Origin: Alphaproteobacteria bacterium UBA3864
GTDB lineage: Bacteria > Pseudomonadota > Alphaproteobacteria > CAAGCB01 > CAG-977
Assembly: GCA_002393065.1 (NCBI GenBank)
Contig: DGGW01000004.1
Span: 16,461 to 80,460 of the forward strand
Direction: 5' to 3'
Length of the DNA stretch: 64,000 bases
Shown: piece by piece, positions 7,692 through 63,434 of the stretch
Position numbering within the stretch: the first letter of the stretch is position 1
How the letters are laid out: each line of letters begins with the position of its first letter
The notes under the pieces: generated by a model
Databases searched by the model: none
What the model was told of the DNA's origin: nothing
Seen by the model: only the letters and a program-made list of their open reading frames with translations
Program-made: the position numbers and the translations under genes

Positions 7692-7707
7692 TGTTTCACG
7701 TAAAACA
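7692..7707. promoter_or_regulatory. parS-like site TGTTTCACGTAAAACA (one mismatch to the canonical ParB-binding palindrome)
   Basis: Matches 15 of 16 positions of the two perfect copies at 49206 and 63015 and shares their AAAATG 5' flank. Confidence 0.55.
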
Positions 7708-8249: not shown

Positions 8250-8360
8250 AAAACGGGAGTTTGCTTAAAAGACCGAAACGATCAAATCGAAGTGAACAAT
8301 GACGGACTTGAAAAATCCGGTCGATTCATTAATAATCATTCCTGTTCATTGGCAGAAACG

Positions 8361-8450: not shown

Positions 8451-8553
8451 TAAAGCTTTGAATTTTTCACCGTTGTTTACGGACATTCTTTGTAATTCAT
8501 ATTCTATAATGAAATCAAAGAGTTATTTGATTACTTCCGTTTTTCGTAATTAA

Positions 8554-8823
8554 AATCTTTCCATCACGATTGATGTTAAAAGTTGCAAAGAGGTTGCAAC
8601 GGAAATCCGCAAAGCGACGGCGGAAACGGAGGCGGCAAAGAGGAAAACGGCGGATTTGAGACGTGAATATGACGCTTTTATCGAACGGACGAACAAGAAT
8701 TACTCTTTCTTCAAAAGCTTTCTTGAATCGCGTCCGGAATGGAAAAAGGAGTTCCTGCGACAGCGTGAGGAGTTGGCGCGGTCGCAGGAAAACCGTTCCA
8801 GAAATTACGGACGGGAACGGTAA
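8554..8823 (+). pseudogene. paralog of the small protein at 11850-12110, lacking a canonical start codon
   Basis: Open frame ...RREYDAFIERTNKNYSFFKSFLESRPEWKKEFLRQREELARSQENRSRNYGRER*. No in-frame ATG/GTG/TTG in the 5' part. Confidence 0.35.
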
Positions 8824-8962
8824 TAACATTAGGGCATCTTTCTGACAAAATCGTAGTATTATTCCTAATTAGAATAGCTATCTATAAAAACAAACGATTA
8901 GACATAGGATCGAAAACTCTTTAAGGTTAAATCAATACCAACCGAACAAAGGAGTTTTCAAA

Positions 8963-10021: not shown

Positions 10022-10043
10022 AGAAAAAACGGCGGGACAAAAA

Positions 10044-10382
10044 ATGAACATTCTTGTCGGAAGCATAATGTTGGCAGTCGCGCTTGAAAACAATCCGACG
10101 GCGGCGGCGATTTCGGAAAAATTGCCGCTGACCGTTGATATGGCGGAGCTGAACGGCAACGAAAAATACGTTTATCTGCCTTTTTCCCTGCCGTCAAATC
10201 CGGAGCCTGTCGGAAACATCAAAGCCGGAGATGTGATGTTGTTCGGCGATGATTGTCTGGTGATTTTCTATCAGAATTTTAAAACGTCCTACACTTATAC
10301 AAAAATAGGACGGATAGAAAATGCGGAAAATCTTTTTGAAATTCTGAAACGCGGAAAAGTATCCGTCTCTTTTACAAAATAA
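10044..10382 (+). CDS. cyclophilin-like-fold protein
   Basis: 112 aa. Pattern ...AVALENNPTAAA...LPLTVDM..L.....YLP........G...AGDVMLFGD.CLVIFY resembles the cyclophilin-like family that is commonly paired with flavodoxin-like genes. Confidence 0.6.
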   Translation: MNILVGSIMLAVALENNPTAAAISEKLPLTVDMAELNGNEKYVYLPFSLPSNPEPVGNIKAGDVMLFGDDCLVIFYQNFKTSYTYTKIGRIENAENLFEILKRGKVSVSFTK

Positions 10383-10393
10383 AGGAGTTTGAT

Positions 10394-10933
10394 GTGAAAA
10401 AAGTTGTTATCGTTTCTTCTTCGCCGCGTAAAAACGGCAATTCTGAAATACTGGCGTTTGAAGCCGCCAAAGGCGCAAAAGACGCTGGAAATGAAGTCGA
10501 AATTTTGCTTTTGCGCGACAAAACAATCAATTTCTGCCGCGGCTGTCTGGCTTGTCAAAAGATGCTGAAATGCGTCATTAAAGACGATATGGCGGAAATG
10601 ATTGAAAAAGTCAGAAACGCTGATACCGTTATTTTCGCAACGCCGATCTATTATTATGAAATGAGCGGACAGCTGAAAACTTTTCTCGACCGGTGCAATC
10701 CGATCTATCCGCAGGTATACGCTTTTCGTGATGTTTATCTGTTAAGTTCCTCTGCGGAGGAAGGGCAAAATGCCGCCGAACGCGCCGTTTCCGGTTTAAA
10801 AGGCTGGATCGAATGCTTTGAAAAGGCAAAGTTCGCCGGAGCCTTTAACGCGGGCGGCGTTACCGCGCCGAACGATGTTCTGAAAAACGCGGAAATGCTG
10901 AAAGCCGCTTATGATATGGGCAGGAATATTTAA
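10394..10933 (+). CDS. flavodoxin-like NADPH-dependent FMN reductase / iron-sulfur flavoprotein family protein
   Basis: 179 aa. GTG start 7 nt after AAAGGAG. N-terminus MKKVVIVSSSPRKNGNSEIL; motifs CRGCLAC and IFATPIYYYEMSGQLKTFLDR. Confidence 0.8.
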   Translation: MKKVVIVSSSPRKNGNSEILAFEAAKGAKDAGNEVEILLLRDKTINFCRGCLACQKMLKCVIKDDMAEMIEKVRNADTVIFATPIYYYEMSGQLKTFLDRCNPIYPQVYAFRDVYLLSSSAEEGQNAAERAVSGLKGWIECFEKAKFAGAFNAGGVTAPNDVLKNAEMLKAAYDMGRNI

Positions 10934-11808
10934 ACGCGAACGGCTTGTTCGACACATTCCAATAACAAAGCGGCAACGGGTGTAAAAGCCTGATACTTCC
11001 GCCAAACAAAATAGAACGGACATTCCAACGGCGGGTTCAGCGGGATAAAGCTGAACTCGCTGTCTTTTCCGCAATACAGCAATTTGTCAAACGTCAGCAT
11101 CACCGCCATATTTTCCCGAACAAACGCCGTTCCGTTATACGGCAGGGTGTTAAAGCCGATAAAATCCAATTCATCCCTTTTTTCGCCGCACCAACGCGGT
11201 AAATCTTTATGAAAGCACTGTTCGGAACAAATCAGGGAATACTTCTTCAAATCGTTAAAAGAAACACTTTCCAGACGGCTCAACGGGTGATTTTTCAGAA
11301 CGACCGCCCCGAAGGAATCATTTTCGGGAACACGGACGACATTGTATTTCGATAGATTGGGATTTTCTACGAATACAGCCAAATCCAAAAAACCCTTGTC
11401 CAGTTTTTCCGCAACGTGTTCCGTATCGCCGCTGAACATATGAAAATGAATGTTCGGACAGGTTTCCCGCACTTTTTTCAATGCCTTGACCAGATAACGG
11501 ATTTGATACGATTCCGCACACCCCAAATACACGTCGCCGCCGGTCATATCGCTCAGCGTTTTAAATTCGCCGATGGTTTTATCCGTCATACCGACAATGT
11601 CCTCCGCGCGTTTTTTCAGGAGAAGTCCTTCTTCGGTCAACACCATTTTAGTGCTTTTACGCAGGAAAAGCTTCTTACCCAATTCCTCTTCCAATTCTTT
11701 CAACGCTTTTGACAAAGTCGGTTGAGTGACGTGAAGAATTTCCGACGCTTTTGTCATATTTTCCATACGGGCGATCGTCAAAAAATAACGTAACGATTTG
11801 ATTTCCAT
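10930..11808 (-). CDS. LysR-family transcriptional regulator
   Basis: 292 aa. N-terminal HTH MEIKSLRYFLTIARMENMTKASEILHVTQPTLSKALKELEEELG. Convergent 4-nt overlap with the flavodoxin-like gene. Confidence 0.85.
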   Translation of the reverse strand: MEIKSLRYFLTIARMENMTKASEILHVTQPTLSKALKELEEELGKKLFLRKSTKMVLTEEGLLLKKRAEDIVGMTDKTIGEFKTLSDMTGGDVYLGCAESYQIRYLVKALKKVRETCPNIHFHMFSGDTEHVAEKLDKGFLDLAVFVENPNLSKYNVVRVPENDSFGAVVLKNHPLSRLESVSFNDLKKYSLICSEQCFHKDLPRWCGEKRDELDFIGFNTLPYNGTAFVRENMAVMLTFDKLLYCGKDSEFSFIPLNPPLECPFYFVWRKYQAFTPVAALLLECVEQAVRV

Positions 11809-11849
11809 TTGTCCTCTCTGGTTGATACGGAATATCCGGTCAATGCTTT

Positions 11850-12110
11850 TTGTTTCTGCCCATAAGATTACGGTATTTTTCTTTTATAAGAAACAGTTTA
11901 TTGAACGGGATAAGAAACGTTCCGTTGCGGCGGGAATACAACGCTTTCATCGAACGGACGAACAAGAATTATTCTTTCTTCAAAAGCTTTCTTGAATCGC
12001 GTCCGGAATGGAAAAAGGAGCTTTTGCGACAACGTGAAGAATTGATCCGATCGCAGGAAAACCGTTCCAGAGATTACGGACGGGAACAATCAATAGGACG
12101 GGAAAGGTAA
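11850..12110 (+). CDS. small conserved hypothetical protein (island-end paralog family)
   Basis: 86 aa. The C-terminal ~55 aa are paralogous to 8665-8818; synonymous differences outnumber non-synonymous ones in this frame (8 vs 5), so the plus frame is the coding one. The true start is uncertain (TTG possible). Confidence 0.45.
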   Translation: MFLPIRLRYFSFIRNSLLNGIRNVPLRREYNAFIERTNKNYSFFKSFLESRPEWKKELLRQREELIRSQENRSRDYGREQSIGRER

Positions 12111-12192
12111 ATACGAACGCTTACGTTTGAAGCACGACGTAATAAACAACAGTTTATTGCCAAAATGAAAAGAATCGTATAAAAAGTAAAAG

Positions 12193-12224
12193 TCCGGTGG
12201 GTGCAACCGCCGGACTTTTGAAAC
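12193..12224 (+). terminator. rho-independent terminator hairpin GTCCGGTGG-GTGCAA-CCGCCGGAC followed by TTTTG
   Basis: A 9-bp stem with one G.U-type mismatch and a T-run, about 80 nt after the small ORF stop. Confidence 0.45.
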
Positions 12225-12447
12225 CCCACAAGGAATCAATATACCTAATTCCTCTGCTCGGTTTCAGGATATGAAAATGTAAGGCTTTTGTCAAGCATTT
12301 TCAGTTGGTTCCTTCTCAACGCGGTAATGTTTCCGCAAAATGGAGGAATAATACGTTTTTATGAGATCAAAGTCCGCCTTTATTGGCTGGCTTTGCGCAT
12401 TATCGAGATTCTGTCTGTCTTAATCAGATAGGCGGAAGATCGGAGAA

Positions 12448-12478
12448 CGGCAGGGATTTTCCCTGCCGTTTCTTTTCA
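12448..12478 (+). terminator. rho-independent terminator ACGGCAGGG-ATTTT-CCCTGCCGT followed by TTCTTTTC
   Basis: Perfect 9-bp stem with a T-rich tail, directly after the 20-codon micro-ORF. Confidence 0.5.
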
Positions 12479-12654
12479 CGGGATTTCGTTTTTAACAAGC
12501 GGACAAAACAAATAAAAACCCCGCCTTTCGATTTCAGAAATCGGTTGCAAAAACAGAGGCGTTTTACAATAATGGATTCGGAAACGGGTTGCAAAGAGGT
12601 TGCAACGGTGATTTTTCAAAGGAAAGGCTTTTTCTGCGGCGAATGTTTCGGGCA

Positions 12655-12745
12655 ATAAAAAAGCTCTGATTTCTCAAGGCTTTTCGATTGGTGCGGATAG
12701 CGGGACTCGAACCCGCACGAGGACAAGCCTCAACAGATTTTAAGT
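12655..12745. repeat. right copy of the roughly 90-bp direct repeat (terminator plus tRNA-Leu 3' half)
   Basis: See 8361-8450; three short mismatch clusters separate the two copies. Confidence 0.8.
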
Positions 12746-12775
12746 CTGTTGTGTCTACCATTCCACCATATCCGC
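12689..12775 (-). tRNA. tRNA-Leu (anticodon UAA), type II with long variable arm
   Basis: Reverse complement GCGGATATGGTGGAATGGTAGACACAACAGACTTAAAATCTGTTGAGGCTTGTCCTCGTGCGGGTTCGAGTCCCGCTATCCGCACCA folds as a cloverleaf. Anticodon loop CTTAAAA; CCA is encoded. Confidence 0.9.
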
Positions 12776-12801
12776 GTCTTTTTCGTTTTTAACACAAGGC
12801 G

Positions 12802-13218
12802 ATGATAATGAAAAGATTGTTTTTGTTTTTTTTCCTGTTGCTTGTCAACGCTTGTTCGTCGGAAGCCGTCTTCGCTCCGCCGTCCGGTTCCATGACGAGC
12901 GTTTTGTTCATGCCGAACAACGCTATTGTCGGTCAGGACGGACAAAAAGGGCTTTGCGAGTACGGGAAGAACGTTTCCGAAAGCGAAGCCGTTTATGTAT
13001 ACGGAAGCGTGTCCCGCCACGGCTCCGCGCGCGAACAAATGATGCTGGCGACCAAACGAATCCTCGAAATCATCAAAATCCTGCGTCGATGCGGGCTTGC
13101 CGAAGATCAGATTATCGCCGACGCCGATCCGAATCCGAAAAGAGTGGGCTTGCAAACGCCCCTTTTCTATGACGATGAAAAAGACGACCGCGTCTTCCTG
13201 CAAAAAATCATTCGCTGA
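12802..13218 (+). CDS. hypothetical lipoprotein
   Basis: 138 aa with signal peptide plus lipobox (LLLVNACSS). The overlapping minus-strand ORF 12730-13305 is Arg/Trp-rich junk. Confidence 0.5.
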   Translation: MIMKRLFLFFFLLLVNACSSEAVFAPPSGSMTSVLFMPNNAIVGQDGQKGLCEYGKNVSESEAVYVYGSVSRHGSAREQMMLATKRILEIIKILRRCGLAEDQIIADADPNPKRVGLQTPLFYDDEKDDRVFLQKIIR

Positions 13219-25995: not shown

Positions 25996-26024
25996 TTGCA
26001 GTTTTTTTAATATAGCACTATAAG
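25996..26024 (+). promoter_or_regulatory. candidate promoter for tRNA-Pro (TTGCAG, 17-nt spacer, TATAAG)
   Basis: Hexamers positioned about 15 nt upstream of the tRNA 5' end. Confidence 0.4.
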
Positions 26025-26038
26025 TTCGCTTATGCAAT

Positions 26039-26115
26039 CGGAGTGTAGCTCAGCTTGGTAGAGCACTACGTTCGGGACGTAGGGGTCGGAGGTTCAAATC
26101 CTCTCACTCCGACCA
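26039..26115 (+). tRNA. tRNA-Pro (anticodon CGG)
   Basis: CGGAGTGTAGCTCAGCTTGGTAGAGCACTACGTTCGGGACGTAGGGGTCGGAGGTTCAAATCCTCTCACTCCGACCA folds as a cloverleaf. Anticodon loop TTCGGGA; CCA is encoded. Confidence 0.9.
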
Positions 26116-26122
26116 ATATAAG

Positions 26123-26156
26123 CCCTTGAAAACGATGTGTTTTCAAGGGTTTTTCT
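26123..26156 (+). terminator. rho-independent terminator (11-bp stem CCCTTGAAAAC / GTTTTCAAGGG followed by TTTTTC)
   Basis: Perfect hairpin plus T-tract 8 nt after the tRNA-Pro 3' end. Confidence 0.8.
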
Positions 26157-26611
26157 TTTGCCGGAAAACAGCTCTGAAACAGCCACAAGGTAACAAATAG
26201 GTAACACACAACGGGGGCTTTTACAGGCTCAAAAAAAATTTCACATCGAATCGGTAAAAGCGGAAAGTTTTCGCCGCCGTTTTATGGCTGTGAAAGCGAG
26301 ACGGCGGAACGGAATAATATTGTCTAGTTGAGTGTGGATTTTTTGTCCGGCTTTGACCAATTTGACCGAGTCCTGATAGCGCAGGAAAAATCCTTCCGTC
26401 AGCCCGAAACAACGCATCAACCGCAAATCCGTATCAGCAGTAATTCCTCTTGATACATATAATATATATCCTTTATTTTACAAGCGCTTATAAGAGTTTG
26501 AATGTCCCTATGTTAAAATTGGTCCTTTTTTTGAATTTACGAAATTTTGAAGCGAAAAATCCTTTAAAATCAATATCCGTTCCTCAGGAGCCTACCAAGG
26601 TAAAATGAGGT

Positions 26612-26638
26612 AAAAAAGGCTTTTTTCGTAAAAAAGCC
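26612..26638 (-). terminator. terminator hairpin GGCTTTTTT-CGT-AAAAAAGCC (T-tract on the minus strand) downstream of ogt
   Basis: 9-bp stem and 3-nt loop, about 45 nt after the ogt stop. Confidence 0.5.
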
Positions 26639-26684
26639 ATGTGGTTAGCCTTGGCGTATTGAAATCTTTATTTTATTATAAAAT

Positions 26685-27224
26685 TTACAATGCTGTCCCG
26701 TTTTTCGGCACAAAAAAGCCGGACATATTCACTTTTTCTAACTCCAGTAGTTTGATTTTTTTTGTTATTCCACCCGCATAACCTGTTAGATTGCCTTTCG
26801 TTCCCACGACACGATGACAGGGAATAATCAATGAAATAGAATTATGCCCGACAGCCCCGCCAACCGCTTGCGCCGACATCTGTTTAATGCCTTTTTCTCT
26901 GGCGATTTTATCGGCAATCTGTCCATAAGTCATCGTTTGCCCGAATGGAATTGTAAGCATAATTTCCCATACTCTCTTTCTAAAAGGTGTTGTAAGTATT
27001 TTAAGCGGTGGCGTAAAATCAGGTGTCTGACCGCTAAAATAAATATCAAGCCACCTATCAGCCTTTTCAAAAACAGGCAAATCTTTTTCTGGCGCATTTT
27101 CATCTATTGTATCTGCGAAAAACTTCTGTCCATCAAACCACAAACCGATTAGGTATCTTCCCTCGCTTGCCACTGTTATACCACCAAGCGGTGATTGATA
27201 ATGATGTATATAGTTATTTATCAC
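26685..27224 (-). CDS. ogt: methylated-DNA--protein-cysteine methyltransferase
   Basis: 179 aa. Active-site motif IPCHRVV; upstream helix-turn-helix YGQIADKIAREKG. Confidence 0.85.
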   Translation of the reverse strand: MINNYIHHYQSPLGGITVASEGRYLIGLWFDGQKFFADTIDENAPEKDLPVFEKADRWLDIYFSGQTPDFTPPLKILTTPFRKRVWEIMLTIPFGQTMTYGQIADKIAREKGIKQMSAQAVGGAVGHNSISLIIPCHRVVGTKGNLTGYAGGITKKIKLLELEKVNMSGFFVPKNGTAL

Positions 27225-27394
27225 GTATATTTTTCCTTTTTTATTTATTATATTTGATATAAGTATTTGATATTAAAAATCTTTGTCAATATAAAATGTT
27301 TGTTCGTAAATAATTATTATAAGGTGTTCAGCCGGGGAACGCTGTGCGATTCCGGCCTGATTTCCGATACGGGAACGGCGGAAATACGGTAAAA

Positions 27395-28018
27395 TCACCG
27401 TCGAATATGCAGATAAATCAACGGGATACTGATCAGGGAAATGGCGTACTTAACGATAAAGTTGAACATAAAAATCTGCCAAATAATGTCCCAACCGTAT
27501 GTTCCGGCAAAGGCGCCGACGCAAAAAATCGCGTTATCGACAGGAATGCTGACGGTGTTGCTGACAAAAACACGCCCCCATTTACGCCTTTCACCAAACC
27601 GCTTTTCATAAACGTGATAGACTTCCGTATCGACCAGTTCACTGACCAGTTGAGCCAATAAGGAAAAAGCAACGATACGCCAAACCGGCGCCAGACAATC
27701 GTTGAACGCCACCGAAGCCGACGATGACGGATTGGACGGAAACAAAGCGACGAACGCGAAATAACCGGACATCAGCAAATTCAGAAAAACGGCGAAATAA
27801 ATGCATTTTCGCGTCATTTCTCTGCCCAGTTCGCGATGCATCAGATCGCGCAAAGTAAATGTCAGCGGATAGAGAAACACGCCCATATCGACCGCATAGC
27901 CGAAAATAAATCCGACTTTAATGCTGCTGATGTTTGAAATCAGTTGCAACGCGACATAAGACAAAGAAACAAACAAAGCCACGGACGTCATTTTATTCAC
28001 TATAACGTTTTTAAACAA
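27395..28018 (-). CDS. queuosine-precursor transporter (YhhQ/VUT family, DUF165)
   Basis: 207 aa, six predicted TM helices. Motifs FIFGYAVDMGVFLYPLTFTLRDL and IPVDNAIF are typical of YhhQ. Confidence 0.7.
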   Translation of the reverse strand: MFKNVIVNKMTSVALFVSLSYVALQLISNISSIKVGFIFGYAVDMGVFLYPLTFTLRDLMHRELGREMTRKCIYFAVFLNLLMSGYFAFVALFPSNPSSSASVAFNDCLAPVWRIVAFSLLAQLVSELVDTEVYHVYEKRFGERRKWGRVFVSNTVSIPVDNAIFCVGAFAGTYGWDIIWQIFMFNFIVKYAISLISIPLIYLHIRR

Positions 28019-28061
28019 AAAAAAGAAACGTCCGGCGGAAAATCATCCGTTTTTTTAATTC

Positions 28062-28682
28062 TTACCGTTCCGAACGCGCAGCGCGAGCTTTTTCCAAAAC
28101 GGCCATTCCCGTTTCGATCCGTTTCAGCGTCGATACCGCCGGTTGCCACCCGAAACGCAATCCGTAGCGTTTTTTCAGGCTTTCCATTGATTGCTGCGCC
28201 TGCGTGTTTTTAACGCCCGTTCGCAGGACCCGCAGATAATCGTTGATGTCATCGACGTTATACTGCGATGTGACGCCGATCAAAGCCCGATAGCTTTCAA
28301 TAAAGTCCTTTCGGTCGTAGTCCAGTTTTTTCAATTCGGGATTCAGCTTGGAGAGCTTGTCGATTTCCTTGTTGACGGCAACCAAAGCCGACGGGATTTC
28401 CGCTTCGAACTTTTGGGCGGACCGGGCTTTGACCGGATCGTCCGATTGCAGATAAGACGACGCGATCGAATACTTTAAAAACGCTTTCCGATAATCGTAT
28501 TCGGCTTCGGCCGGCGTTTTACCGTCCAAAAACTTGTATCGTCCGGCGATTCCCGTCAATCCGGTCATTTCCTCCAACCGGACGGCGTGCGCCGTATATT
28601 TGATAACCCCGTTTTCCTTGTAATGACCGTGACGGTCATACGCGTTTTCGATTTCTTCCGGTGTTTTTACTTCGTTCGTCAT
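28062..28682 (-). CDS. hypothetical protein (no recognisable domain)
   Basis: Start taken at MTNEVKTPEE (28682) after an AAAGAG RBS; the longer ORF to 28733 would swallow the palindrome at 28699-28714. Host-like codon usage. Confidence 0.45.
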   Translation of the reverse strand: MTNEVKTPEEIENAYDRHGHYKENGVIKYTAHAVRLEEMTGLTGIAGRYKFLDGKTPAEAEYDYRKAFLKYSIASSYLQSDDPVKARSAQKFEAEIPSALVAVNKEIDKLSKLNPELKKLDYDRKDFIESYRALIGVTSQYNVDDINDYLRVLRTGVKNTQAQQSMESLKKRYGLRFGWQPAVSTLKRIETGMAVLEKARAARSER

Positions 28683-28698
28683 CTCTTTCGTCCTTTTT

Positions 28699-28714
28699 GT
28701 TTGACTAGTCAAAC
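28699..28714. promoter_or_regulatory. perfect 16-bp palindrome GTTTGACTAGTCAAAC abutting the RBS of the hypothetical gene
   Basis: TTGAC-TA-GTCAA inverted repeat; also contains a TTGACT -35-like hexamer. Confidence 0.3.
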
Positions 28715-28837
28715 TTATAAGTTTCATAAACAAAATTCAAGTAAAAAAAGCAGTTGGGCGAAAATTTTTTACCGACCGCATCCCTTCCCTGCCATCGGAA
28801 AGAGAATCCTTAAAATTCAAGGTGTTATGCTGTTTTC

Positions 28838-29470
28838 TTAAAAAATAAAGCGAAATCCGACGGTTATTTCGTGGAACATATGATCGCGCCGGTCGGTATA
28901 TTGAACGGCATCGGCCTTTTCCTGAAAATCAATTTTATTCAGTATCAAAAATTTATATCCGATATCCAGCCAGGAAGTCGGCGCCACCCGAATCCCCAAT
29001 CCCGCTTTCGCGCTGGCAGCCATGACCGTCGGCTTTCTTTCTTCCAACAGATCGTTGTCGTATTTGATTTCCAAATCCGCCACACCGACGCCGATCCCCA
29101 AATAAGGCCGAAGGTTCCTGTTCGGTCGGAAATCAATATATTCGTTGAGCAGATAGGTTTTGACACGAACTTTTGTTTTATAAATCGTTTCGCCGAATTT
29201 CGCCGGATAAGGATCGTTTTCCAAAACGCTCAACTCCAGCTCCGTTCTGAGCATTGCGCCCTGCACGCCGATGGCCGCTTCAACAACGGAATTGTCCGTA
29301 TGGAAAATTTTTGCCTTGTCTTTGTTCAAACGCAGTCTGGTCATTCCCCGGGAATAACCCGTTCTTGCCGAAAAGTACGTCGCGTAATCGTAATCATTGT
29401 AAGTGGGTCTTGAAAAAGCGGACGAAGCGATTCCCATGACCAAAATCAATACGGAAAAGAACAGTTTCAT
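28838..29470 (-). CDS. outer-membrane beta-barrel protein (OmpA-like / OmpW-like small porin family)
   Basis: Signal peptide MKLFFSVLILVMGIASSAFS, alternating amphipathic beta-strands and a C-terminal aromatic signature ...VGFRFIF. Confidence 0.65.
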   Translation of the reverse strand: MKLFFSVLILVMGIASSAFSRPTYNDYDYATYFSARTGYSRGMTRLRLNKDKAKIFHTDNSVVEAAIGVQGAMLRTELELSVLENDPYPAKFGETIYKTKVRVKTYLLNEYIDFRPNRNLRPYLGIGVGVADLEIKYDNDLLEERKPTVMAASAKAGLGIRVAPTSWLDIGYKFLILNKIDFQEKADAVQYTDRRDHMFHEITVGFRFIF

Positions 29471-47708: not shown

Positions 47709-48493
47709 TTTTTCACCTCTTGTTTTAATATTTCCGCCGCCAAACCTATATAAGCCTGCGATCCTCTGCTTTTGAAATCGTACAGCAAAATCGGTTTGCC
47801 GTGCGACGGCGCTTCGGAAACGCGAACGTTTCTGGGAATGACGGTTTTATAAACCTTGTCCCCGAAATAGCTTCGCACGTCTTGGGCAACGACCTCGGAA
47901 AGCCCCGTCCGGCCGTCATACATCGTCAAAACCAGCCCTTGAATGATCAAATCGTGATTGAAATTCCTGTGCACCAGTTCGACCGTTTTCATCAGATCGG
48001 CCAGACCTTCCAGCGCCAGATATTCGCATTGGACGGGAATCATGACGCCGCGGGCCGCGACAAGAGCGTTGACTGTCAGCATCCCGACGGAAGGCGGACA
48101 ATCTATAAAAATGTAATCATATGCCAGCGATTCCTGATCGAAAGCTTTTTTCAGATAAAACTGCGGATTCTTTTTTTGCGCCAGTTCGAAATCGACACCG
48201 GCCAGATCCTTTGACGCCGCGATAACGGACAAGTTCGGAATCTTCGTCCAAATGATGGCGGACGAAATCGTCGCGTCACCCATCATAACATCGTAAGCGT
48301 TTCTGGCGGCCTTGACCCGGCTGACGCCCAGACTGACCGTCGCGTTTCCCTGCGGATCCAGATCGATCAGCAAAACTTTTCGCCCGGCCGCCGCCAAAGC
48401 GGTCGCCACATTAATTGCCGTCGTCGTTTTGCCGACACCGCCTTTCTGATTCGAAACGGCGATGATGTACGGTTTTTTATTCAGGACATTCAT
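47705..48493 (-). CDS. parA: chromosome partitioning ATPase ParA (Soj)
   Basis: Deviant Walker A KGGVGKTT; 262 aa. Confidence 0.9.
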   Translation of the reverse strand: MNVLNKKPYIIAVSNQKGGVGKTTTAINVATALAAAGRKVLLIDLDPQGNATVSLGVSRVKAARNAYDVMMGDATISSAIIWTKIPNLSVIAASKDLAGVDFELAQKKNPQFYLKKAFDQESLAYDYIFIDCPPSVGMLTVNALVAARGVMIPVQCEYLALEGLADLMKTVELVHRNFNHDLIIQGLVLTMYDGRTGLSEVVAQDVRSYFGDKVYKTVIPRNVRVSEAPSHGKPILLYDFKSRGSQAYIGLAAEILKQEVKK

Positions 48494-49110
48494 TTCTTAC
48501 GAACCTCCGCCATACATAAAATACGGCCTTCTTCACTGGTCTGACTTTGAACCTTTTTAAGGTCAAAATCAAATTTTTTCAAACACGTTTTAATTTCTTC
48601 CTCGGCTTTTTTCCCTTTCATGAACAAACAACGGGTATGTTTATCCGTAAACGGCAAAGCGTAAGCCGTCAATTTATCAAGCGAAGCCAACGCTCGCGCC
48701 GTGATGACATCGACTTTGAAAGGCGTCATTTTTTCGATTCTGCCGTTATGAACGATAATATTGTCAGCCCCGCACTTCAAGGCGGCCTCTTTCAAAAAAT
48801 CACTTTTACGCCCTTCGCTTTCCGTTAAATGGAAAATCTTGTCCGGATTCATCAGCGCCAGAACGAAAGCCGGAAAACCGGCGCCGCTTCCAAAATCCAA
48901 AATCGTTTTATCCGTTGTCTTCAACAAACCGGACAACTGCGCCGAATCCAAAACATGACGCGTCCATATCACCGGTAACGTCGAATCGGCGATCAAATTC
49001 ATAACGGACTGGGTTTGTTCAAGAAAAGAAATATAAACATCCAATTTGCCGACGACATCCTCGGACAAATTCAAACGCTTCAAAACCGTTTCGCGTTCAT
49101 CGGAAATCAC
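48490..49110 (-). CDS. rsmG: 16S rRNA (guanine527-N7)-methyltransferase
   Basis: 206 aa. SAM motif DFGSGAGFP; rsmG-parA-parB joined by ATGA overlaps. Confidence 0.9.
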   Translation of the reverse strand: MISDERETVLKRLNLSEDVVGKLDVYISFLEQTQSVMNLIADSTLPVIWTRHVLDSAQLSGLLKTTDKTILDFGSGAGFPAFVLALMNPDKIFHLTESEGRKSDFLKEAALKCGADNIIVHNGRIEKMTPFKVDVITARALASLDKLTAYALPFTDKHTRCLFMKGKKAEEEIKTCLKKFDFDLKKVQSQTSEEGRILCMAEVRKK

Positions 49111-49205: not shown

Positions 49206-49221
49206 TGTTTCACGTGAAACA
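49206..49221. promoter_or_regulatory. parS centromere site TGTTTCACGTGAAACA (perfect match)
   Basis: Canonical 16-bp ParB-binding palindrome, 96 bp upstream of the rsmG start in the rsmG-hslU spacer. Confidence 0.85.
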
Positions 49222-51840: not shown

Positions 51841-51949
51841 TTTTTTTCCTTTCAGTTTGATAAAAAAAATTTAGAGGAAAGGAAAAAAAAGTAAATCGCG
51901 TCTTACGGATAAAAAAATCCTCTTTAAGTTTTAAAGAGGATTTTTGTTT

Positions 51950-53203
51950 TTAAGAGTTCATCGCTTCAAAGAAATCGTGGTTGTTTTTTGACTGTTTGAG
52001 TTTTTCCATCAAAAATTCCATTGCGTCCGCCGGTCCCATCGGCATCAGGATACGACGCAATACCCACATTTTCGATTGAGTGTTCTTATCGACAAGCAAT
52101 TCTTCCTTGCGCGTTCCCGAACGGGTGATGTCGATCGCGGGGAAGATGCGTTTATCGGACACTTTGCGGTCAAGAATGATTTCCGAATTGCCCGTTCCTT
52201 TGAATTCTTCAAAAATAACTTCGTCCATACGGGAACCGGTGTCGATCAGGGCGGTCGCGATAATGGTCAGGGAACCGCCTTCCTCGATATTGCGGGCGGC
52301 GCCGAAAAAGCGTTTCGGTTTTTGAAGAGCGTTGGCGTCGACGCCGCCGGTCAGCACCTTTCCGGAGCTGGGAACGACCGTATTGTAAGCGCGTGCCAAA
52401 CGCGTGATCGAATCGAGCAGAATGACGACGTCGCGCTTGTGTTCGACAAGGCGTTTCGCTTTTTCGATGACCATTTCGGCGACCTGAACGTGACGGGCCG
52501 CCGGTTCGTCAAACGTCGAGCTGATGACTTCGCCTTTGATCGACCGGCTCATTTCCGTAACTTCTTCGGGGCGTTCGTCGATCAACAGGACAATCAGGTA
52601 CATTTCAGGATTGTTCTGCGTAATGGCGTGAGCGATGTTCTGCAACATGACGGTTTTACCGGTTCTGGGCGGCGCGACGATCATGCCGCGCTGTCCTTTG
52701 CCTTGCGGACAAATCAGGTCGATGATGCGGGACGTCATGTTTTTGCTGTCGACATCGCCTTCCATTTTGATTTTTTCCGTCGGATGAAGCGGCGTCAGGT
52801 TGTCGAAATTGATACGATAACGGACCGATTCGGGATCGCAGAAGTTGATTTTCAACACCTTCGTCAAAGAAAAATAACGTTCGCCGTCCTTCGGGGCGCG
52901 GATTTCCCCTTCGACGGTATCGCCGGTTCTTAAACCGAATTTTTTGATTTGGCTGGGCGAAACGTAAATATCATCGGAACCGGCCAGATAGTTTGCCTGC
53001 GGAGAACGCAGAAAACCGAATCCGTCCTGCATGACCTCTATGACGCCTTCATCAATGAGTATTTCGTCGTTTTTGGCCAGTTGTTTCAAAACGGCGAACG
53101 TCAGATCTTGCGTCCGCAACATGGATGCGTTTTCGATACCTTGTTCTTCGGCTAAATTCAACAATTCGGCAGGGGATTTTTTCTTTAATTCTTTTAAATG
53201 CAT
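51950..53203 (-). CDS. rho: transcription termination factor Rho
   Basis: Start MHLKELKK at 53203. Motifs GFGFLR, Walker [10 protein letters not shown] and R loops. The longer ORF start is unlikely. Confidence 0.9.
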
Positions 53204-53642
53204 GGAAACCGCACTATAATATTTATCGTAAGAGGGGGAGAAAACGGCATCAGAACCGTGCCGCACGATTTTTTGTATGCTTAAAAAGCATCGGCGTCAA
53301 GCACAAAGAGTTTTCCCTTCTAAAAATATAAATATTAAAAAGATGATGTTTGATATTATTCCCTGTTGATAAGTATGACGCAATATTATCAACACTTTTT
53401 GCACATAAGGAGTCAAAAGCTTTTTATTCTTTCCGACGATGTTGACAATCGGGAACGACTCCGTCAAAACGGGCGGAAAACCTTTGTCTGTGAATAAGTT
53501 TGATAACTTTTTATCCCTTTTTTGACCGGTTTGAGCAAAAAAATCTGTTCAGAGTACATAAAAAAGAGGACTTTTGTTCGCAAAAGGGATAAAAAGGAAA
53601 CAGGCGCTTTTTTATCATACTTATACACAAGGAGGGCTAAAC
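53204..53642. other. candidate chromosomal replication origin (oriC) or extended rho leader: AT-rich divergent rho/maf spacer with DnaA-box-like 9-mers
   Basis: TTATCAACA at 53386-53394 (+) and 53364-53372 (-); TTATTCACA at 53489-53497 (-). Coding-strand bias switches here; parS sites lie nearby. Confidence 0.45.
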
Positions 53643-58509: not shown

Positions 58510-58578
58510 AGTTTGAAATCAAAAGTCCTTGCGCGGAAACGGTCGCGGCGGTATCCTGTCAGACCGAAGGAAAAAATT

Positions 58579-59061
58579 ATGTTGAATATCAAACCGCCGA
58601 CACGTGAAGAAAAGCTCATTTTTCAGGGATTGCAAAAAGCGATCCTTGAAGACAAGGCCTTTATTGAAATCAATTTCAGACGGTTGAACAGGTTCGGATC
58701 GCCTTTTTTCAATCCGTGGGAAAATATTTTGCCACTGTTGTTTTTTGTTTTTCTGTTTTTTGCCACGTTGTTTGTGTTCGGCATGGCGGCGGCGACGGTG
58801 TTATTGGCTTTTCTGGCTTTGGGATACGCTTTTCTGATGCCGTATTTCTTAAAGCCTTTTATGAAAAACAGAGTTATTAAAAGAATCGTTCCCAGAATCG
58901 AAAAATTTTTGATCGCATGGCGTTTCGGCGGCTTTACGATTTATCTGGCGGCGGATCCGAATTATAAATGCCGCGCCATGCTGGACGATTGGAAACCGTT
59001 TGTTCAGACATACTTTGCCGATCTGATTCCCGCCGATTCGGAGGAAAAAGAAAATGAGTGA
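58579..59061 (+). CDS. hypothetical membrane protein
   Basis: Start MLNIKPP after a GAAGGAAAAAA RBS; two or three TM helices; between mltA and the smr gene. Confidence 0.45.
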   Translation: MLNIKPPTREEKLIFQGLQKAILEDKAFIEINFRRLNRFGSPFFNPWENILPLLFFVFLFFATLFVFGMAAATVLLAFLALGYAFLMPYFLKPFMKNRVIKRIVPRIEKFLIAWRFGGFTIYLAADPNYKCRAMLDDWKPFVQTYFADLIPADSEEKENE

Positions 59062-59572
59062 CGACGATCTTTGGCAAGCCGTCGTCAAAACGGTCAAACC
59101 TCTCGGTTCGAAAAAAAATCCCGAAAAAGCGGAAAATATATCATTAGAAAAGAAATTATCTTTAAATATCAAGCCCTTAAGACGTGATCCAGATTTGGAT
59201 GTCAAAACATACGCTCCGTTGGAAGCTGGGGATATTTCCGCTCTGGACAGAAAGAACGGCAAACGATTGAAAGCGGGTGAGATGCCCGTTGAAGGACGGC
59301 TCGATTTGCACGGCCACACGCTTGAAACGGGATTCGAAGCGTTAAAGAACTTTATTTACCATTATAATAAAGTCAATGCGCGTTGTCTGCTGGTCATTAC
59401 CGGCAAAGGCGGTTTTTCGGGACGCGGCGTGATCAGGGCGGAATTTCAAAACTGGATGAATTCGCCCGAGATACGCAGTTTGATTCTGGCTTTTTCGCCG
59501 GCGCAGATCCGTGACGGCGGCGACGGCGCTTTTTATGTTCTGCTCCGGCGATGCAGAAAGGACAAATCATGA
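59054..59572 (+). CDS. Smr-domain protein
   Basis: C-terminal Smr motif LDLHGHTLETGFEALKNFIYHY...LLVITGKG. Confidence 0.75.
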   Translation: MSDDDLWQAVVKTVKPLGSKKNPEKAENISLEKKLSLNIKPLRRDPDLDVKTYAPLEAGDISALDRKNGKRLKAGEMPVEGRLDLHGHTLETGFEALKNFIYHYNKVNARCLLVITGKGGFSGRGVIRAEFQNWMNSPEIRSLILAFSPAQIRDGGDGAFYVLLRRCRKDKS

Positions 59573-60876
59573 AGAATACGATTTTCGCTCCGGCAACGGC
59601 GGCGGGAAAAGCCGGTGTTGCGATCGTGCGTGTTTCCGGACCGGACGCCACGGCCGTTTTTGAAAGATTTGGGGTCCGAAAAGACATCGAACCGCGCAAA
59701 GCCGTTTTCGCGAAGCTGAAAAAAGCCGACGGAACGCCGATCGACGACGCGGTCGTCCTTTATTTCAAAGCACCGAACAGCTTTACGGGCGAAGACGTCG
59801 TCGAGCTTCAGACTCACGGCGGCCGCGCCGTTTTGTCGTCCGTTTTGGCCGAATTGAGCCTGATCGACGGTTTCCGTCCCGCCGACAGGGGCGAATTCAC
59901 CCGCCGTGCCGTCGAAAACGGTAAAATGGATCTGACGGCCGCCGAAGGATTGGCGGATCTGGTCGATGCCGAAACGGAACAACAGCGGAAGCAGGCTTTG
60001 CGGCAAATGAACGGCGACCTCGGCCGGCTGTACGACGGATGGCGGGAGGAGCTTGTCCGCCTTTTGGCGTGGAGTGAAGCCTACATCGACTTTCCCGAAG
60101 AGGAGATCCCCGCCGACGTTTCCGAAAGAATCAGGGGAAAAATCACGGAGCTGAAAGCCGCCGTTGAAAATCATCTGCAAAACGGAAAACGGGGCGAACG
60201 GTTGCGCGACGGGTTCCAGATCGCGATCGTCGGCGCGCCGAACGCCGGCAAGTCAAGCCTAATGAACCGGTTGGCCGACCGCGACGTCGCGATCGTGTCG
60301 TCAACGGCGGGAACGACGCGGGACGTGATCGAGGTCCGCATGGACATCAACGGATATCCCGTCGTCATCGCGGATACGGCCGGATTACGGCAAACGGACG
60401 AGGTAATCGAGGCCGAAGGCGTCCGCCGCGCCAAAAAGCGGGCGAAGGAGGCCGATTTGATTCTGGCCGTTTACGACGCTTCCGCACCGGTGGAGGACTC
60501 CGAAACGAAGGCTTTTCAGGGCGGCAACGTTTTGAAAATCATGAACAAGAAGGACAAGGTGTCCGATTGTTCGGGCGAAGGGCTTTGGATTTCCGCCAAA
60601 ACGGGGGAAGGAACGGACGCTTTGCTCGACAGGATCGCCGGCTTTGTCGAAAACGCCCTTTCGATGAGGGAGGAGCCGTCTCTGACGCGCGTGCGGCACA
60701 GACAGTCTTTGGAGGAGTACCGCGATTATCTCGAACGGTCGCTTTCGGCACCTGAAATCGAATTGGCGGCGGAGGATCTGCGCCTTGCCATGCGGGCTTT
60801 GGGAAAAATCACGGGTGCCGTCCGCGTCGAGGAATTGCTGGATATCATTTTTAAGGATTTTTGCATAGGGAAATGA
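59569..60876 (+). CDS. mnmE: tRNA modification GTPase MnmE
   Basis: Start MKNTIFAPATAAGKAGVAIVRVSG (ATGA overlap with smr). G-domain GAPNAGKSSL and C-terminal CIGK. Confidence 0.9.
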   Translation: MKNTIFAPATAAGKAGVAIVRVSGPDATAVFERFGVRKDIEPRKAVFAKLKKADGTPIDDAVVLYFKAPNSFTGEDVVELQTHGGRAVLSSVLAELSLIDGFRPADRGEFTRRAVENGKMDLTAAEGLADLVDAETEQQRKQALRQMNGDLGRLYDGWREELVRLLAWSEAYIDFPEEEIPADVSERIRGKITELKAAVENHLQNGKRGERLRDGFQIAIVGAPNAGKSSLMNRLADRDVAIVSSTAGTTRDVIEVRMDINGYPVVIADTAGLRQTDEVIEAEGVRRAKKRAKEADLILAVYDASAPVEDSETKAFQGGNVLKIMNKKDKVSDCSGEGLWISAKTGEGTDALLDRIAGFVENALSMREEPSLTRVRHRQSLEEYRDYLERSLSAPEIELAAEDLRLAMRALGKITGAVRVEELLDIIFKDFCIGK

Positions 60877-62735
60877 ACATGTATGACGTTATAGTTGTCG
60901 GTGGCGGCCACGCCGGTTGCGAAGCGGCGGCGGCGGCGGCGCGGACCGGAGCGAACACGCTGCTTTTGACGCATAAGATCGCGACGCTCGGTGAAATGTC
61001 GTGCAATCCGGCGATCGGCGGGCTGGGCAAAGGGCACTTGGTCCGCGAAATCGACGCGCTGGACGGGCTGATGGGGCGGATCGCGGACAAAGGCGGCATT
61101 CAGTTTCGCATGCTGAACGCGTCGAAAGGGCCGGCTGTCCGCGGTTTGCGCGCGCAGGAGGACCGGAAGCTCTACCGCGATGCCATGCGCGAGGAATTGC
61201 TGCATTACGACGGCCTGACCGTTATCGAAGGCGCCGTTGAAGGGCTTTTGTTCGAAGAAACCGTCGGCCGGAAGACCGTCACGGGCGTCGAAACGGCGGA
61301 TCACACCGTTTATAAGGGAAAAACCGTTGTTCTGACGGCGGGGACTTTTCTGAAAGGTCTGATGCATGTCGGCGAACGGAAAACCGTCGGCGGACGTGTC
61401 GGCGAGATTTCCTGCGAACACGTTTCGGATTCGCTCGCGGCTTTGGGGCTGACTGTCGGACGGTTGAAAACGGGAACGCCCGCGCGTCTGGACGGCCGGA
61501 CGATCGATTATTCGCAACTTCAAAAGCAGGACGGTGATGCGGTCATCGAACCGTTTTCTTATCTGGACAAGGAAATCACGACGCCGCAGGTCCCCTGCTA
61601 CATCACGGCGACGAACATCGAAACGCATAGGATCATTCGCGCGAACATGAGCAGGGCGCCCCTGTTTTCAGGTCAGATCAAAGGCGTCGGTCCCCGCTAT
61701 TGTCCCAGTATCGAAGACAAGCTCGTCAAATTCCCCGACCGCGATTCCCACCACGTATTTTTGGAACCGGAGGGATTGGACGATTTCACCGTGTATCCGA
61801 ACGGAATTTCGACGTCCTTGCCCGAAGACGTGCAGGACGCGATGATCCATTCGATCAAAGGATTGGAAAACGTGCGGATTATCCGGCCGGGCTACGCGAT
61901 CGAATACGATTATGTCGATCCCGTCGAAATGAAGCGGACGCTTGAAACGAAAAAGGTCGAAAATCTGTTTATCGCCGGACAACTCAACGGCACGACCGGA
62001 TACGAGGAAGCAGGGGCTCTGGGATTGCTGGCGGGTGTCAACGCGGCATTGAAGGCGGCAAACGATTCCCGCGAATTCACCCTCGATCGGGCGGACGCTT
62101 ATCTGGGCGTGATGATCGACGATTTGACGACGAAAGGCGTCGATGAGCCGTACCGCATGTTTACCTCCCGTGCCGAATACCGGTTGCTGTTGCGTTCGGA
62201 CAATGCGGATATGCGGCTGACGCAAAAAGGGATCGACATCGGTTGCGTCGGCAAAGCCCGTCGCGACGCTTTTTACGACAAACGCAATCGGTTGGAGGAG
62301 GCGCACGAAAAACTTCTTTCGGTCGGCGGTACGCCGCGCGAATTGGAAAAACTCGGCTTCACGGTCAACCGCGACGGCGCCCGGCGGACGGGGGAAGACC
62401 TGCTTTCCTACGAAGGCGTGACGTGGGATAAATTAGCCGAAGTGTTTCCCGTTTTGAAAGGCACGCGGACGGACGTCGCCGAACAGTTGGAAATCGCGTC
62501 TTTATATAAAGGCTATCTCCAACGGCAGGAATCGGATATCCGCGCTTTCCGCAAAGACGAGGCGATGAAGATCCCCGCCGATATAGATTACGGAAAAGTC
62601 GGCGGTCTGTCGAACGAGATCCGGATCAAGCTGTCAAAGTTCAGACCGGAAACGCTTGGCGCGGCATCCCGCGTTTCAGGTGTGACACCGGCGGCGGTGA
62701 CGGCGATCCTCGGCTATGTGAAGTCGATGAAATAA
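60873..62735 (+). CDS. mnmG: tRNA uridine 5-carboxymethylaminomethyl modification enzyme MnmG (GidA)
   Basis: FAD motif YDVIVVGGGHAGCEAA. Start MNMYDV at 60873 (ATGA overlap with mnmE) or 60879. Confidence 0.9.
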   Translation: MNMYDVIVVGGGHAGCEAAAAAARTGANTLLLTHKIATLGEMSCNPAIGGLGKGHLVREIDALDGLMGRIADKGGIQFRMLNASKGPAVRGLRAQEDRKLYRDAMREELLHYDGLTVIEGAVEGLLFEETVGRKTVTGVETADHTVYKGKTVVLTAGTFLKGLMHVGERKTVGGRVGEISCEHVSDSLAALGLTVGRLKTGTPARLDGRTIDYSQLQKQDGDAVIEPFSYLDKEITTPQVPCYITATNIETHRIIRANMSRAPLFSGQIKGVGPRYCPSIEDKLVKFPDRDSHHVFLEPEGLDDFTVYPNGISTSLPEDVQDAMIHSIKGLENVRIIRPGYAIEYDYVDPVEMKRTLETKKVENLFIAGQLNGTTGYEEAGALGLLAGVNAALKAANDSREFTLDRADAYLGVMIDDLTTKGVDEPYRMFTSRAEYRLLLRSDNADMRLTQKGIDIGCVGKARRDAFYDKRNRLEEAHEKLLSVGGTPRELEKLGFTVNRDGARRTGEDLLSYEGVTWDKLAEVFPVLKGTRTDVAEQLEIASLYKGYLQRQESDIRAFRKDEAMKIPADIDYGKVGGLSNEIRIKLSKFRPETLGAASRVSGVTPAAVTAILGYVKSMK

Positions 62736-62779: not shown

Positions 62780-63434
62780 ATGCGTAATTTCGTTGTCCGA
62801 AAATCGCCGTCCCGACGCGAACGTATGTCGCGCCCAGTTGGACGGCAATCGGGAAATCATTGCTCATTCCCATTGAAAGTTCTTTTAAATTCAGCTGTTT
62901 GGCAAGCTTTTTTAACAGTGCGAAATGTGGTGCCGGTTCATCGTCCACAGGGGGGATACACATCAATCCGACGATATTCAGTCCTAATTCCAGACACTTA
63001 GCGGCGAAACTTAATGTTTCACGTGAAACAATCCCCGATTTCTGAACTTCAGATCCCGTGTTAACTTCGATGAAACAAGGCAGAAAACGGTTTTGTTTCT
63101 TCATTTCATCCGCCAGTTTTTCCGCCACTTCGATGCGGTCAACCGTTTCGATGACATCAAACAACGCAACGGCGTCTTTGACTTTGTTTGTTTGCAGATG
63201 TCCGATCAGATGCAATTCCAGATTAGGATACTTTTCTTTCAAAATGGTAAATTTTTCTTTGGCTTCCTGTACGCGGTTTTCGCCGAAAACGCGCTGGCCG
63301 GCTTCCAGAACGGGCAGGATCTCGTCAACCGTGTGCATTTTCGAAACGGCGATAAGGGTGATGTCCGACGGGTCGCGACCGCAATCTTTCGCCGCGGCAA
63401 CAAGCTGTTCTTTGACTTGCGAATAAGAAGTCAT
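62778..63434 (-). CDS. yggS: YggS-family pyridoxal-phosphate homeostasis protein (alanine-racemase N-terminal-like barrel)
   Basis: 218 aa with PLP-lysine region IAVSKMH and C-terminal TYVRVGTAIFG. Confidence 0.85.
   Translation of the reverse strand: MTSYSQVKEQLVAAAKDCGRDPSDITLIAVSKMHTVDEILPVLEAGQRVFGENRVQEAKEKFTILKEKYPNLELHLIGHLQTNKVKDAVALFDVIETVDRIEVAEKLADEMKKQNRFLPCFIEVNTGSEVQKSGIVSRETLSFAAKCLELGLNIVGLMCIPPVDDEPAPHFALLKKLAKQLNLKELSMGMSNDFPIAVQLGATYVRVGTAIFGQRNYA
63015..63030. promoter_or_regulatory. parS centromere site TGTTTCACGTGAAACA (perfect match, intragenic in yggS)
   Basis: Same 16-mer as 49206-49221. Encodes IVSRET in the yggS frame, so it is a binding site embedded in coding DNA. 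Confidence 0.8.

Follow-up and report, generated by a model that had tools for sequence, protein, structure and literature searches.

The origin Cori of Caulobacter was mapped by experiment to the region between hemE and a DUF299 gene (PMC1914354, PMC6393856), and for Azospirillum and Magnetospirillum an origin has been predicted within the gene order rho-hyp-hemH-hemE-[ori]-hyp-maf-aroE-coaE-dnaQ (PMC2818188). Concerning the opening of the double strand, DnaA of E. coli recognises a TT[G/A]TT-type motif in the upper, T-rich strand of the duplex-unwinding element (DUE) (PMC10325909). The search rule for the basal unwinding system (BUS) demands at least three consecutive 3'-NAN-5' trios which start within 16 bp of a DnaA box with at most two mismatches (PMC8287927). 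Here, we analyze the spacer between rho and maf (53204-53642) in a stretch of 64,000 nucleotides from contig DGGW01000004.1 of Alphaproteobacteria bacterium UBA3864, hereafter called the window. Judged by its sequence, this spacer very probably serves an uncultured gut alphaproteobacterium as its chromosomal replication origin (oriC), and the origin itself would occupy the right-hand ~330 bp (about 53310-53630).

The spacer comprises 439 bp between the ATG of rho on the minus strand (53203) and the ATG of maf (53643), and its GC content is 0.367 compared to 0.514 for the whole window. A previous inspection of the letters alone, referred to here as the sequence-only reading, had delimited this AT-rich gap correctly at both ends and had proposed it as a candidate oriC. 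The proposal is supported at the sequence level by a cluster of DnaA boxes, a candidate DUE, the GC skew, the parS sites and parAB, and the synteny with known origins. Two features of a DnaA-type oriC, an enriched cluster of boxes in non-coding DNA and, as predicted from sequence, an AT-rich DUE beside one of these boxes, are found in the spacer.

DnaA boxes were searched in the window as matches to TTATNCACA with at most one mismatch. The search gave 31 boxes, with 24.1 expected, a window-wide count that is not significant. Five of the 31, including both perfect boxes of the window, are concentrated within 266 bp of the spacer (53364-53629), and every other 439-bp stretch of the window contains at most two. 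First-order Markov simulations matched to the composition of the spacer gave a mean of 0.44 boxes, and none of 5000 runs reached five. For perfect boxes, the two found compare with 0.015 expected (P=4e-4). The three box-like 9-mers named in the sequence-only reading are all present, namely TTATCAACA at 53364-53372 (-) and again at 53386-53394 (+), and TTATTCACA at 53489-53497 (-). Two further boxes were added, TTTTGCACA at 53397-53405 (+) and the perfect TTATACACA at 53621-53629 (+).

The window itself stems from a metagenome assembly (ENA ERZ28436069). A genome-collection scan with Maf led to related loci in metagenome-assembled genomes (MAGs) of uncultured Alphaproteobacteria from human gut, rumen and horse faeces. 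The set of relatives consists of 19 loci (L003-L021) with Maf identities of 68-83% and Rho identities of 90-93%, so that counts over 20 sequences or spacers refer to the window plus these 19. Boxes were counted in all 19 loci, and alignment A1 contains the window and 18 loci, leaving out L004, which is nearly identical to L003. The divergent arrangement of rho and maf around a gap of 422-437 bp is present in 19 of 19 relatives. Their boxes are located at the same positions as those of the window and mostly show the perfect E. coli consensus TTATCCACA, and the two TTATCAACA boxes of the window are therefore regarded as slightly decayed orthologues of perfect boxes. Identity in the box columns amounts to 0.876 against 0.641 in the rest of the core (permutation by random placement of blocks of the same size, p=5e-5), which argues for purifying selection on the boxes themselves.

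A more distant locus (L022, Maf identity 62%) separates the boxes from rho. Its left neighbour is the gene of an OmpA-like outer-membrane protein in place of rho, and the 418 bp upstream of maf carry 13 boxes, five of them perfect, in the same architecture. The order starts with AT-rich DNA, TGTGGATAA, the conserved spacer, tandem plus-strand boxes and a CGACTC...CGAGTC repeat, and continues with TGTGTATAA and TAGGATAA, TTATCCACA, TTTTCCACA followed by TGTGAATAA, GGGATATAAT, and finally GTTATCAAAC followed by TTATTCACA. Since the boxes stay upstream of maf despite the replacement of rho, the module goes with maf rather than with a rho leader.

By nearest-neighbour dG (-28.1), the 30-mer at 53318-53347 is the least stable one of the spacer and the candidate AT-rich DUE. 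Among all 30-mers of the window it ranks at the 99.95th percentile, and it ends 17 bp from the first box (box 1, 53364-53372), and in 17 of the 19 relatives the least stable 30-mer is likewise located just left of box 1. On the plus strand, 53342-53363 is occupied by a T/G-rich run of 3-nt periodicity, GATGATGTTTGATATTATT, and a CCC spacer after it. This stretch represents a candidate for the single-strand DnaA-binding part of the DUE. Over the 20 sequences, the lag-3 autocorrelation of this run is 0.61 compared to a background of 0.33. Within the 33 nt left of box 1, TT[G/A]TT occurs 32 times on the plus strand and seven times on the minus strand, distributed over 15 of the 20 sequences; the window has a single copy (TTATT) and L003-L007 have none. 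Most relatives read GTTGTT...GTTGTT at this place. L003-L007 instead show TAGTAGTGGGTAGTAG (TAGTAG), which corresponds to 3'-GAT-5' DnaA-trios (described in PMC8287927), and the run of the window is intermediate between the GTTGTT and TAGTAG types. A micro-ORF (for example ATG TTG TTT TTT GTT GTT GCC TGT GGA TAA) was considered as the cause of the 3-nt periodicity and rejected: an in-frame ATG is present in only eight of the 20 sequences and in none of L003-L007, and the alignment contains 1-nt indels.

Going rightwards from the DUE, box 1 (TTATCAACA, 53364-53372, minus strand) is oriented like R1 of E. coli, has a column identity of 0.97 and reads TGTGGATAA on the plus strand in 14 of 19 aligned sequences. 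Between it and the inverted box 2 lies a 13-bp segment, GTATGACGCAATA (53373-53385), with a column identity of 0.88-0.91, the same level as that of the boxes; its clade consensus is GTCGGACGCAATT, and the segment is recognisable even in L022. Box 2 (TTATCAACA, 53386-53394, plus strand; column identity 0.93) is perfect TTATCCACA in eight relatives. With a gap of 2 bp it forms a tandem with box 3 (TTTTGCACA, 53397-53405, plus strand; column identity 0.87), which reads TTATGCACA in two relatives. Box 4 (TTATTCACA, 53489-53497, minus strand) is TGTGGATAA on the plus strand in 11 relatives. It is directly followed by the weak box 5 (TTATCAAAC, 53498-53506, minus strand), for which most relatives have GGGGATAA or GTGGATAA, and by a TTATCCC motif on the plus strand (53511-53519). 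Boxes 6 and 7 (53544-53561) are degenerate in the window (TCTGTTCAG and AGTACATAA) and clear in the relatives, where TTATACACA (10 of 19) directly precedes TCTGCATAA, the reverse complement of TTATGCAGA. At the right end, a weak box TTATCATAC (53612-53620, plus strand) stands in tandem directly before the perfect box 8 (TTATACACA, 53621-53629, plus strand), and the pair shows a column identity of 0.94-0.96. Box 8 reads TTAT[A/G]CACA in 18 of 19 sequences and abuts the Shine-Dalgarno sequence of maf (AGGAGGG ahead of the start, 53630-53636).

Two GANTC sites, targets of CcrM-type methylases, are found within a poorly conserved stretch of the spacer (GAGTC at 53410-53414 and GACTC at 53457-53461). 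Their number alone does not exceed expectation; it is the positional conservation that stands out. All 19 relatives retain CGAnTCG at ~25 bp ahead of box 4 (A1 columns 262-290), and L022 has the element at 7771-7801. In the relatives it is often an inverted repeat, CGACTCG-N8-13-CGAGTCG, of which the window has the left arm only (53457-53461). Methylation by CcrM or binding of a dimeric protein may be the function of this element.

Concerning strand polarity, almost all 1-kb bins between 13 and 52 kb have a negative GC skew, and from 52 to 63 kb the skew is positive. To remove the confounding effect of gene orientation, the GC skew at third codon positions (GC3 skew) was compared within strands, using open reading frames (ORFs) from a crude greedy call. 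Values of single genes are noisy and informative only by strand and side. For plus-strand genes the median GC3 skew changes from -0.114 on the left to +0.011 on the right (Mann-Whitney p=2.4e-4). Among the relatives, all 19 have a positive skew on the right flank and 15 of the 19 a negative one on the left. In 10 of 19, the 16.6-kb locus has its cumulative minimum no more than 100 bp from the spacer. The change of sign, together with genes diverging from the spacer, indicates the polarity of an origin and not of a terminus.

The genes named on both sides in the sequence-only reading are borne out by Pfam. Leftward from the spacer read Rho, rubrerythrin, HslV, HslU, GidB/RsmG, ParA, ParB and a gene of the Ldh/Mdh family; rightward read Maf, AroE, CoaE, DnaQ, Tim44, MltA, MnmE and MnmG, with SecB on the opposite strand and a Smr-domain gene after MltA. 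The same reading had described a flip of coding-strand preference exactly at the spacer. This holds to the right and within ~8 kb to the left; the 53 kb left of the spacer taken together show no sharp preference, as a crude call gave 31 minus and 19 plus ORFs there and 10 plus and three minus ORFs on the right. The two perfect parS sites claimed near the spacer were found at distances of 4.0 and 9.4 kb. One, TGTTTCACGTGAAACA, occupies 49206-49221 in the rsmG-hslU gap left of the spacer, and the other lies to the right at 63015-63030 inside a YggS-like gene (PF01168). A third match with one mismatch is located at 7692, so that the window contains three parS matches with at most two mismatches, compared to 0.01 expected.

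Both margins of the spacer carry promoter-like elements which read outward. The predicted rho promoter (53272-53300, minus strand) has a -35 element TTGACG (53300-53295), a 17-nt spacer and a -10 element TACAAA (53277-53272), and it reads away from the origin core. TTGAC[C/G] is found 85-97 nt upstream of the rho ATG in 20 of 20 sequences, with a (G/T)ATAAAAC-like -10 element 17 nt downstream. The predicted promoter resembles the housekeeping consensus of Caulobacter, TTGACGS / GCTANAWC. A generic sigma-70 scan of the spacer yielded nothing useful; it misses this promoter because it demands T at position 6 of the -10 element. The predicted rho 5' leader (53204-53268, minus strand) contains a GC-rich hairpin followed by a T-run (~53244-53264), similar to an intrinsic terminator. 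The hairpin is present in 20 of 20 sequences, 28-40 nt before the rho ATG (stem scan 53245-53263 in the window). Its stems vary among the relatives (GCGG/CCGC, GGCG/CGCC, GGGC/GCCC, GGGA/TCCC) with pairing kept, which indicates compensatory changes. RNAalifold gave no structure for the rho leader, because MAFFT misaligned the variable stems, and the hairpin was recovered by folding of single sequences. It begins ~7-10 nt past the start of rho transcription, which is predicted at about 53265-53268 on the minus strand, and could be an attenuator or a 5' stabilising hairpin.

On the right margin, a probable promoter of the maf operon (53567-53595, plus strand) is predicted with a -35 element AGGACT (53567-53572), a 17-nt spacer and a -10 element TAAAAA (53590-53595). 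The prediction builds on invariant blocks of A1, CGGGAC and GGGATAAAA, the latter reading GGGATATAAT in L022, and places the start of transcription at about 53602 on the plus strand. The conserved position of the rho promoter confines the rho transcription unit to the left ~100 bp. A long rho leader, which the sequence-only reading had offered as the alternative explanation of the whole AT-rich spacer, accounts for this part only. Beyond it the explanation was rejected, as the promoter position is conserved and the boxes of L022 stay though rho is replaced.

From these elements the following course of initiation can be proposed. DnaA would bind the boxes, with box 1 facing the AT-rich element, boxes 2 and 3 in tandem, and boxes 4, 5 and 8 (in the relatives also 6 and 7) further right. 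An oligomer of ATP-DnaA on boxes 1-3 would then melt the unstable 30-mer 53318-53347 and keep hold of the T-rich strand in the periodic run (53342-53360), in line with the models of recruitment by the single-stranded DUE (ssDUE) in E. coli and of DnaA-trios in B. subtilis. Subsequently, the helicase would be loaded and replication would run in both directions. The outward-reading promoters of rho and of maf-aroE-coaE-dnaQ may aid opening through the negative supercoiling that RNA polymerase leaves in its wake, an effect proposed for gidA in E. coli and for hemE Ps in Caulobacter. ParB bound to the parS sites at distances of 4 and 9 kb would capture the origins once they have been replicated.

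Several observations weigh against an origin in the spacer or against details of its proposed function. A dnaA gene was absent from the window and from ±8 kb in the relatives when six-frame translations were searched for the motifs DH[ST]TV and G[LV]GKTHL. The cumulative GC skew reaches its minimum at 51.7-52.2 kb, ~1.1-1.5 kb left of the spacer, because rho has a locally positive skew; as the skew covers 64 kb of the replicon, this minimum is local to the window. The change in gene orientation contributes to the total skew flip. The GC3 skew of minus-strand genes shifts in the same direction as that of plus-strand genes, without significance and with three right-hand genes only (p=0.21). In addition, the boxes of the window are weaker than those of the relatives, with TTATCAACA in place of TTATCCACA and with boxes 6 and 7 degenerate. 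Concerning the periodic run, the trios of the window start at 16 and thus comply with the BUS rule only at its limit, and 14 of the 19 relatives fail the rule. These 14 have a GTTGTT-type run with T as the middle base; L003-L007, with a trio start at 14, agree with the rule, likewise at its limit. A fixed register of the run relative to the box was looked for and not found. For these reasons, the element is not filed as a member of BUS. It probably works in a broadly similar manner.

The presence of conserved promoter-like elements for both rho and maf could also mean that the spacer is a divergent promoter and regulatory region only, with the DnaA boxes as operators, for example of the dnaQ operon and of rho, and with the origin at another place such as the vicinity of dnaA. 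DnaA bound to box 8 and its weak neighbour would sit downstream of the predicted maf promoter and ahead of the ribosome-binding site, a location suited to repression of transcription, and the position of dnaA outside the visible sequence leaves room for a dnaA-linked origin or a second box cluster. However, promoters and leaders take up ~100 bp at the left margin and ~75 bp at the right one, and not the central ~250 bp with its six or more conserved boxes. This explanation also leaves the AT-rich element and the T-rich periodic run by box 1 unaccounted for, as well as the switch of skew and orientation, the parS sites and the synteny with alphaproteobacterial origins, both mapped and predicted ones (PMC1914354, PMC2818188). 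Furthermore, promoters in or beside origins are normal (PMC6393856), and their presence is therefore no argument against an origin. We consider a purely regulatory spacer improbable; origin and regulatory roles can coexist.

High-affinity box clusters outside oriC are known in model bacteria, and the spacer could be such a cluster for titration or recycling of DnaA, of the type of datA/DARS in E. coli or the box clusters in B. subtilis, that lies near the par region by chance. Its unwinding is a sequence prediction, which leaves some room for this view. To our knowledge, however, datA and DARS have no DUE-like element beside a box, and we know of no such cluster that coincides with a skew minimum, a divergence of genes and the neighbourhood of alphaproteobacterial origins. 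A titration cluster is thus very unlikely, and even more so than a spacer of regulatory function only. As to chance, AT-rich intergenic DNA is enriched in TTAT words, and the number of boxes in the window as a whole (31 against 24.1) is unremarkable. The absence of five boxes from all 5000 simulations and the boxes kept in position, with perfect consensus, in 19 species-level relatives effectively refute this reading. An oriC in the rho-maf spacer is the explanation we prefer.

Some further observations concern the locus and its surroundings. In one contig that stems from another sample (L002, Logan ERR12351862, 360-807), the sequence is identical to the window from ~53488 rightwards through maf. 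Left of this point, in the DUE, boxes 1-3 and the rho leader, identity is only ~80% and box 2 is the perfect TTATCCACA; the switch points to a recombination breakpoint inside the origin. The contig of L004 (CAVCSV010000008.1) is titled Limosilactobacillus gorillae and yet carries an alphaproteobacterial rho-oriC-maf locus with identities to the window of 92.6% for Rho and 83% for Maf, and it is probably mis-binned or a contaminant. The usually contiguous genes mnmE-mnmG-rsmG-parA-parB are split in the window, with rsmG (48490-49110) and parAB left of the spacer and mnmEG (59551-62735) on the right in opposite orientation. This agrees with a rearrangement across the origin, and in a Roseovarius locus (L024) mnmE adjoins rho.

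An ORF of 182 aa between mltA and the Smr gene (58513-59061, plus strand) has no Pfam match and keeps its position in two related contigs (L001, L032). The gap between the 3' end of rho and the rubrerythrin gene (51841-51949) has a GC content of 0.28. A scan of 51-55 kb against Rfam at E<=1 detected no known RNA family in the spacer. Outside the spacer, in the AT-rich gap after rho, a sub-threshold match to the Enterococcus sRNA RefA9 (51915-51969) was discarded as most likely a chance hit in a terminator or promoter region, with 30.7 bits compared to a gathering score of 49 (E=0.064). Farther left, the stretches 7000-13000 and 26000-29000 have a GC content of 0.40-0.47 compared to ~0.53 in the neighbouring sequence. 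The first of them shows a locally positive GC skew, opposite to its surroundings, and has the parS-like site 7692 at its edge. Both may be acquired or rearranged segments.

Among the known systems, the gene neighbourhood is shared with Cori and with other hemE-linked origins (Rickettsia, Wolbachia, and the predicted ones of Azospirillum and Magnetospirillum): rho is found on one side, maf-aroE-coaE-dnaQ-secB-Tim44-mltA on the other, and parAB/gidAB nearby. The statement of the sequence-only reading that origins in related alphaproteobacteria are located next to the maf-aroE-coaE-dnaQ cluster agrees with the literature (PMC2818188, PMC1914354) and with the synteny of a Rhizobiales MAG (L026), in which the order is rho-HemJ-HemE-[372 bp]-DUF299-maf. 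The Roseovarius MAG mentioned above has mnmE-rho-HemJ-[~380 bp]-maf, and in two Rhodobacterales loci the sole small cluster of near-consensus boxes is found in the HemJ-maf gap. Further common features are the intergenic location, a length of ~400 bp, an AT-rich region, DnaA boxes, GANTC sites and an edge promoter which reads outward, as does hemE Ps in Cori.

In contrast to the Cori type, rho and maf are the direct flanks of the spacer, and the Pfam search found neither hemE nor hemJ/hemH nor the DUF299 (COG1806) gene there. The window thus represents the canonical rho-hemJ/hemH-hemE-ori-DUF299-maf-aroE-coaE-dnaQ neighbourhood with the heme genes and DUF299 deleted, which is consistent with a lineage that has lost heme biosynthesis. 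Unlike in the Cori type, mnmEG is located across the origin from rsmG-parAB. Consensus sites for CtrA (TTAA-N7-TTAA) and for IHF (WATCAANNNNTTR) are each absent from all 20 spacers, whereas Cori has five CtrA sites and one IHF site. Relaxed TTWW-N7-TTWW matches number 4-15 per spacer and are uninformative, because the DNA is AT-rich. Boxes of the window and its relatives match or nearly match the high-affinity consensus of E. coli, whereas Cori has G-boxes of moderate and W-boxes of weak affinity (PMC6393856). Measured by the Brassinga/Marczynski criteria for Cori-type origins as used in PMC1914354, the rho...maf-aroE-coaE-dnaQ cluster and GANTC sites are present, and the hemE/COG1806 flank, the CtrA sites and the IHF site are missing.

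These results supply a well-supported origin position for widespread uncultured gut and rumen Alphaproteobacteria, as needed for growth estimates by peak-to-trough ratios or iRep and for replichore-aware genome analysis. They also imply that hemE as a marker next to oriC fails once the heme genes are lost, while the maf-aroE-coaE-dnaQ side stays a reliable landmark. The missing CtrA and IHF consensus sites and the strength of the boxes hint that control of the origin by the cell cycle, as in Caulobacter, is not shared by the whole class.

The likeness to BUS, described for Bacillus subtilis, Helicobacter pylori and others, consists of a box, a run of 3-nt periodicity at a distance of 3-4 bp from it, and AT-rich DNA beyond the run. 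For the orientation of trios with respect to the box, the sequences of E. coli and B. subtilis served as reference. On the strand expected from this, L003-L007 carry 3'-GAT GAT GGG(T) GAT GAT GAA-5' (compare PMC8287927). Unlike in BUS, T holds the middle position in the GTTGTT-type run of 14 of the 19 relatives, and the register is not fixed. A bolder reading, which we regard as possible though rather doubtful, is that of an origin independent of CtrA and IHF which has regained or kept high-affinity boxes of the E. coli consensus. In this clade the capture element by box 1 would alternate between GAT trios (L003-L007) and TTGTT (the others), with the window as an intermediate. If true, nature would have provided an experiment here, which suggests that both published models of unwinding describe interchangeable sequence solutions to one interaction of DnaA with single-stranded DNA.

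Taken as a whole, the picture will not surprise a specialist, and the flanks other than hemE/DUF299, the lack of CtrA and IHF consensus sites, the strong boxes and the two kinds of single-strand motif within one clade are modest variations on a known origin type. Compared to E. coli oriC, the spacer has no 13-mer repeats and no GATC/SeqA system, lacks an IHF consensus between box 1 and the next box, places an inverted box 13 conserved bp beyond box 1, and has other genes at its flanks. Shared with E. coli oriC are a rightmost box which, like R4, is oriented the other way, tandem boxes spaced by 2 bp, and a core of ~250 bp flanked by outward-reading promoters. The order of an AT-rich DUE, a T-rich strand with TT[G/A]T(T), a GC-rich spacer and an R1-like box TGTGGATAA is likewise the same, and TT[G/A]T(T) on the T-rich strand by an R1-like box is the sequence feature that characterises recruitment by the ssDUE in E. 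coli (PMC10325909). In its overall layout, the probable rho-maf origin looks more like E. coli oriC than like Cori.

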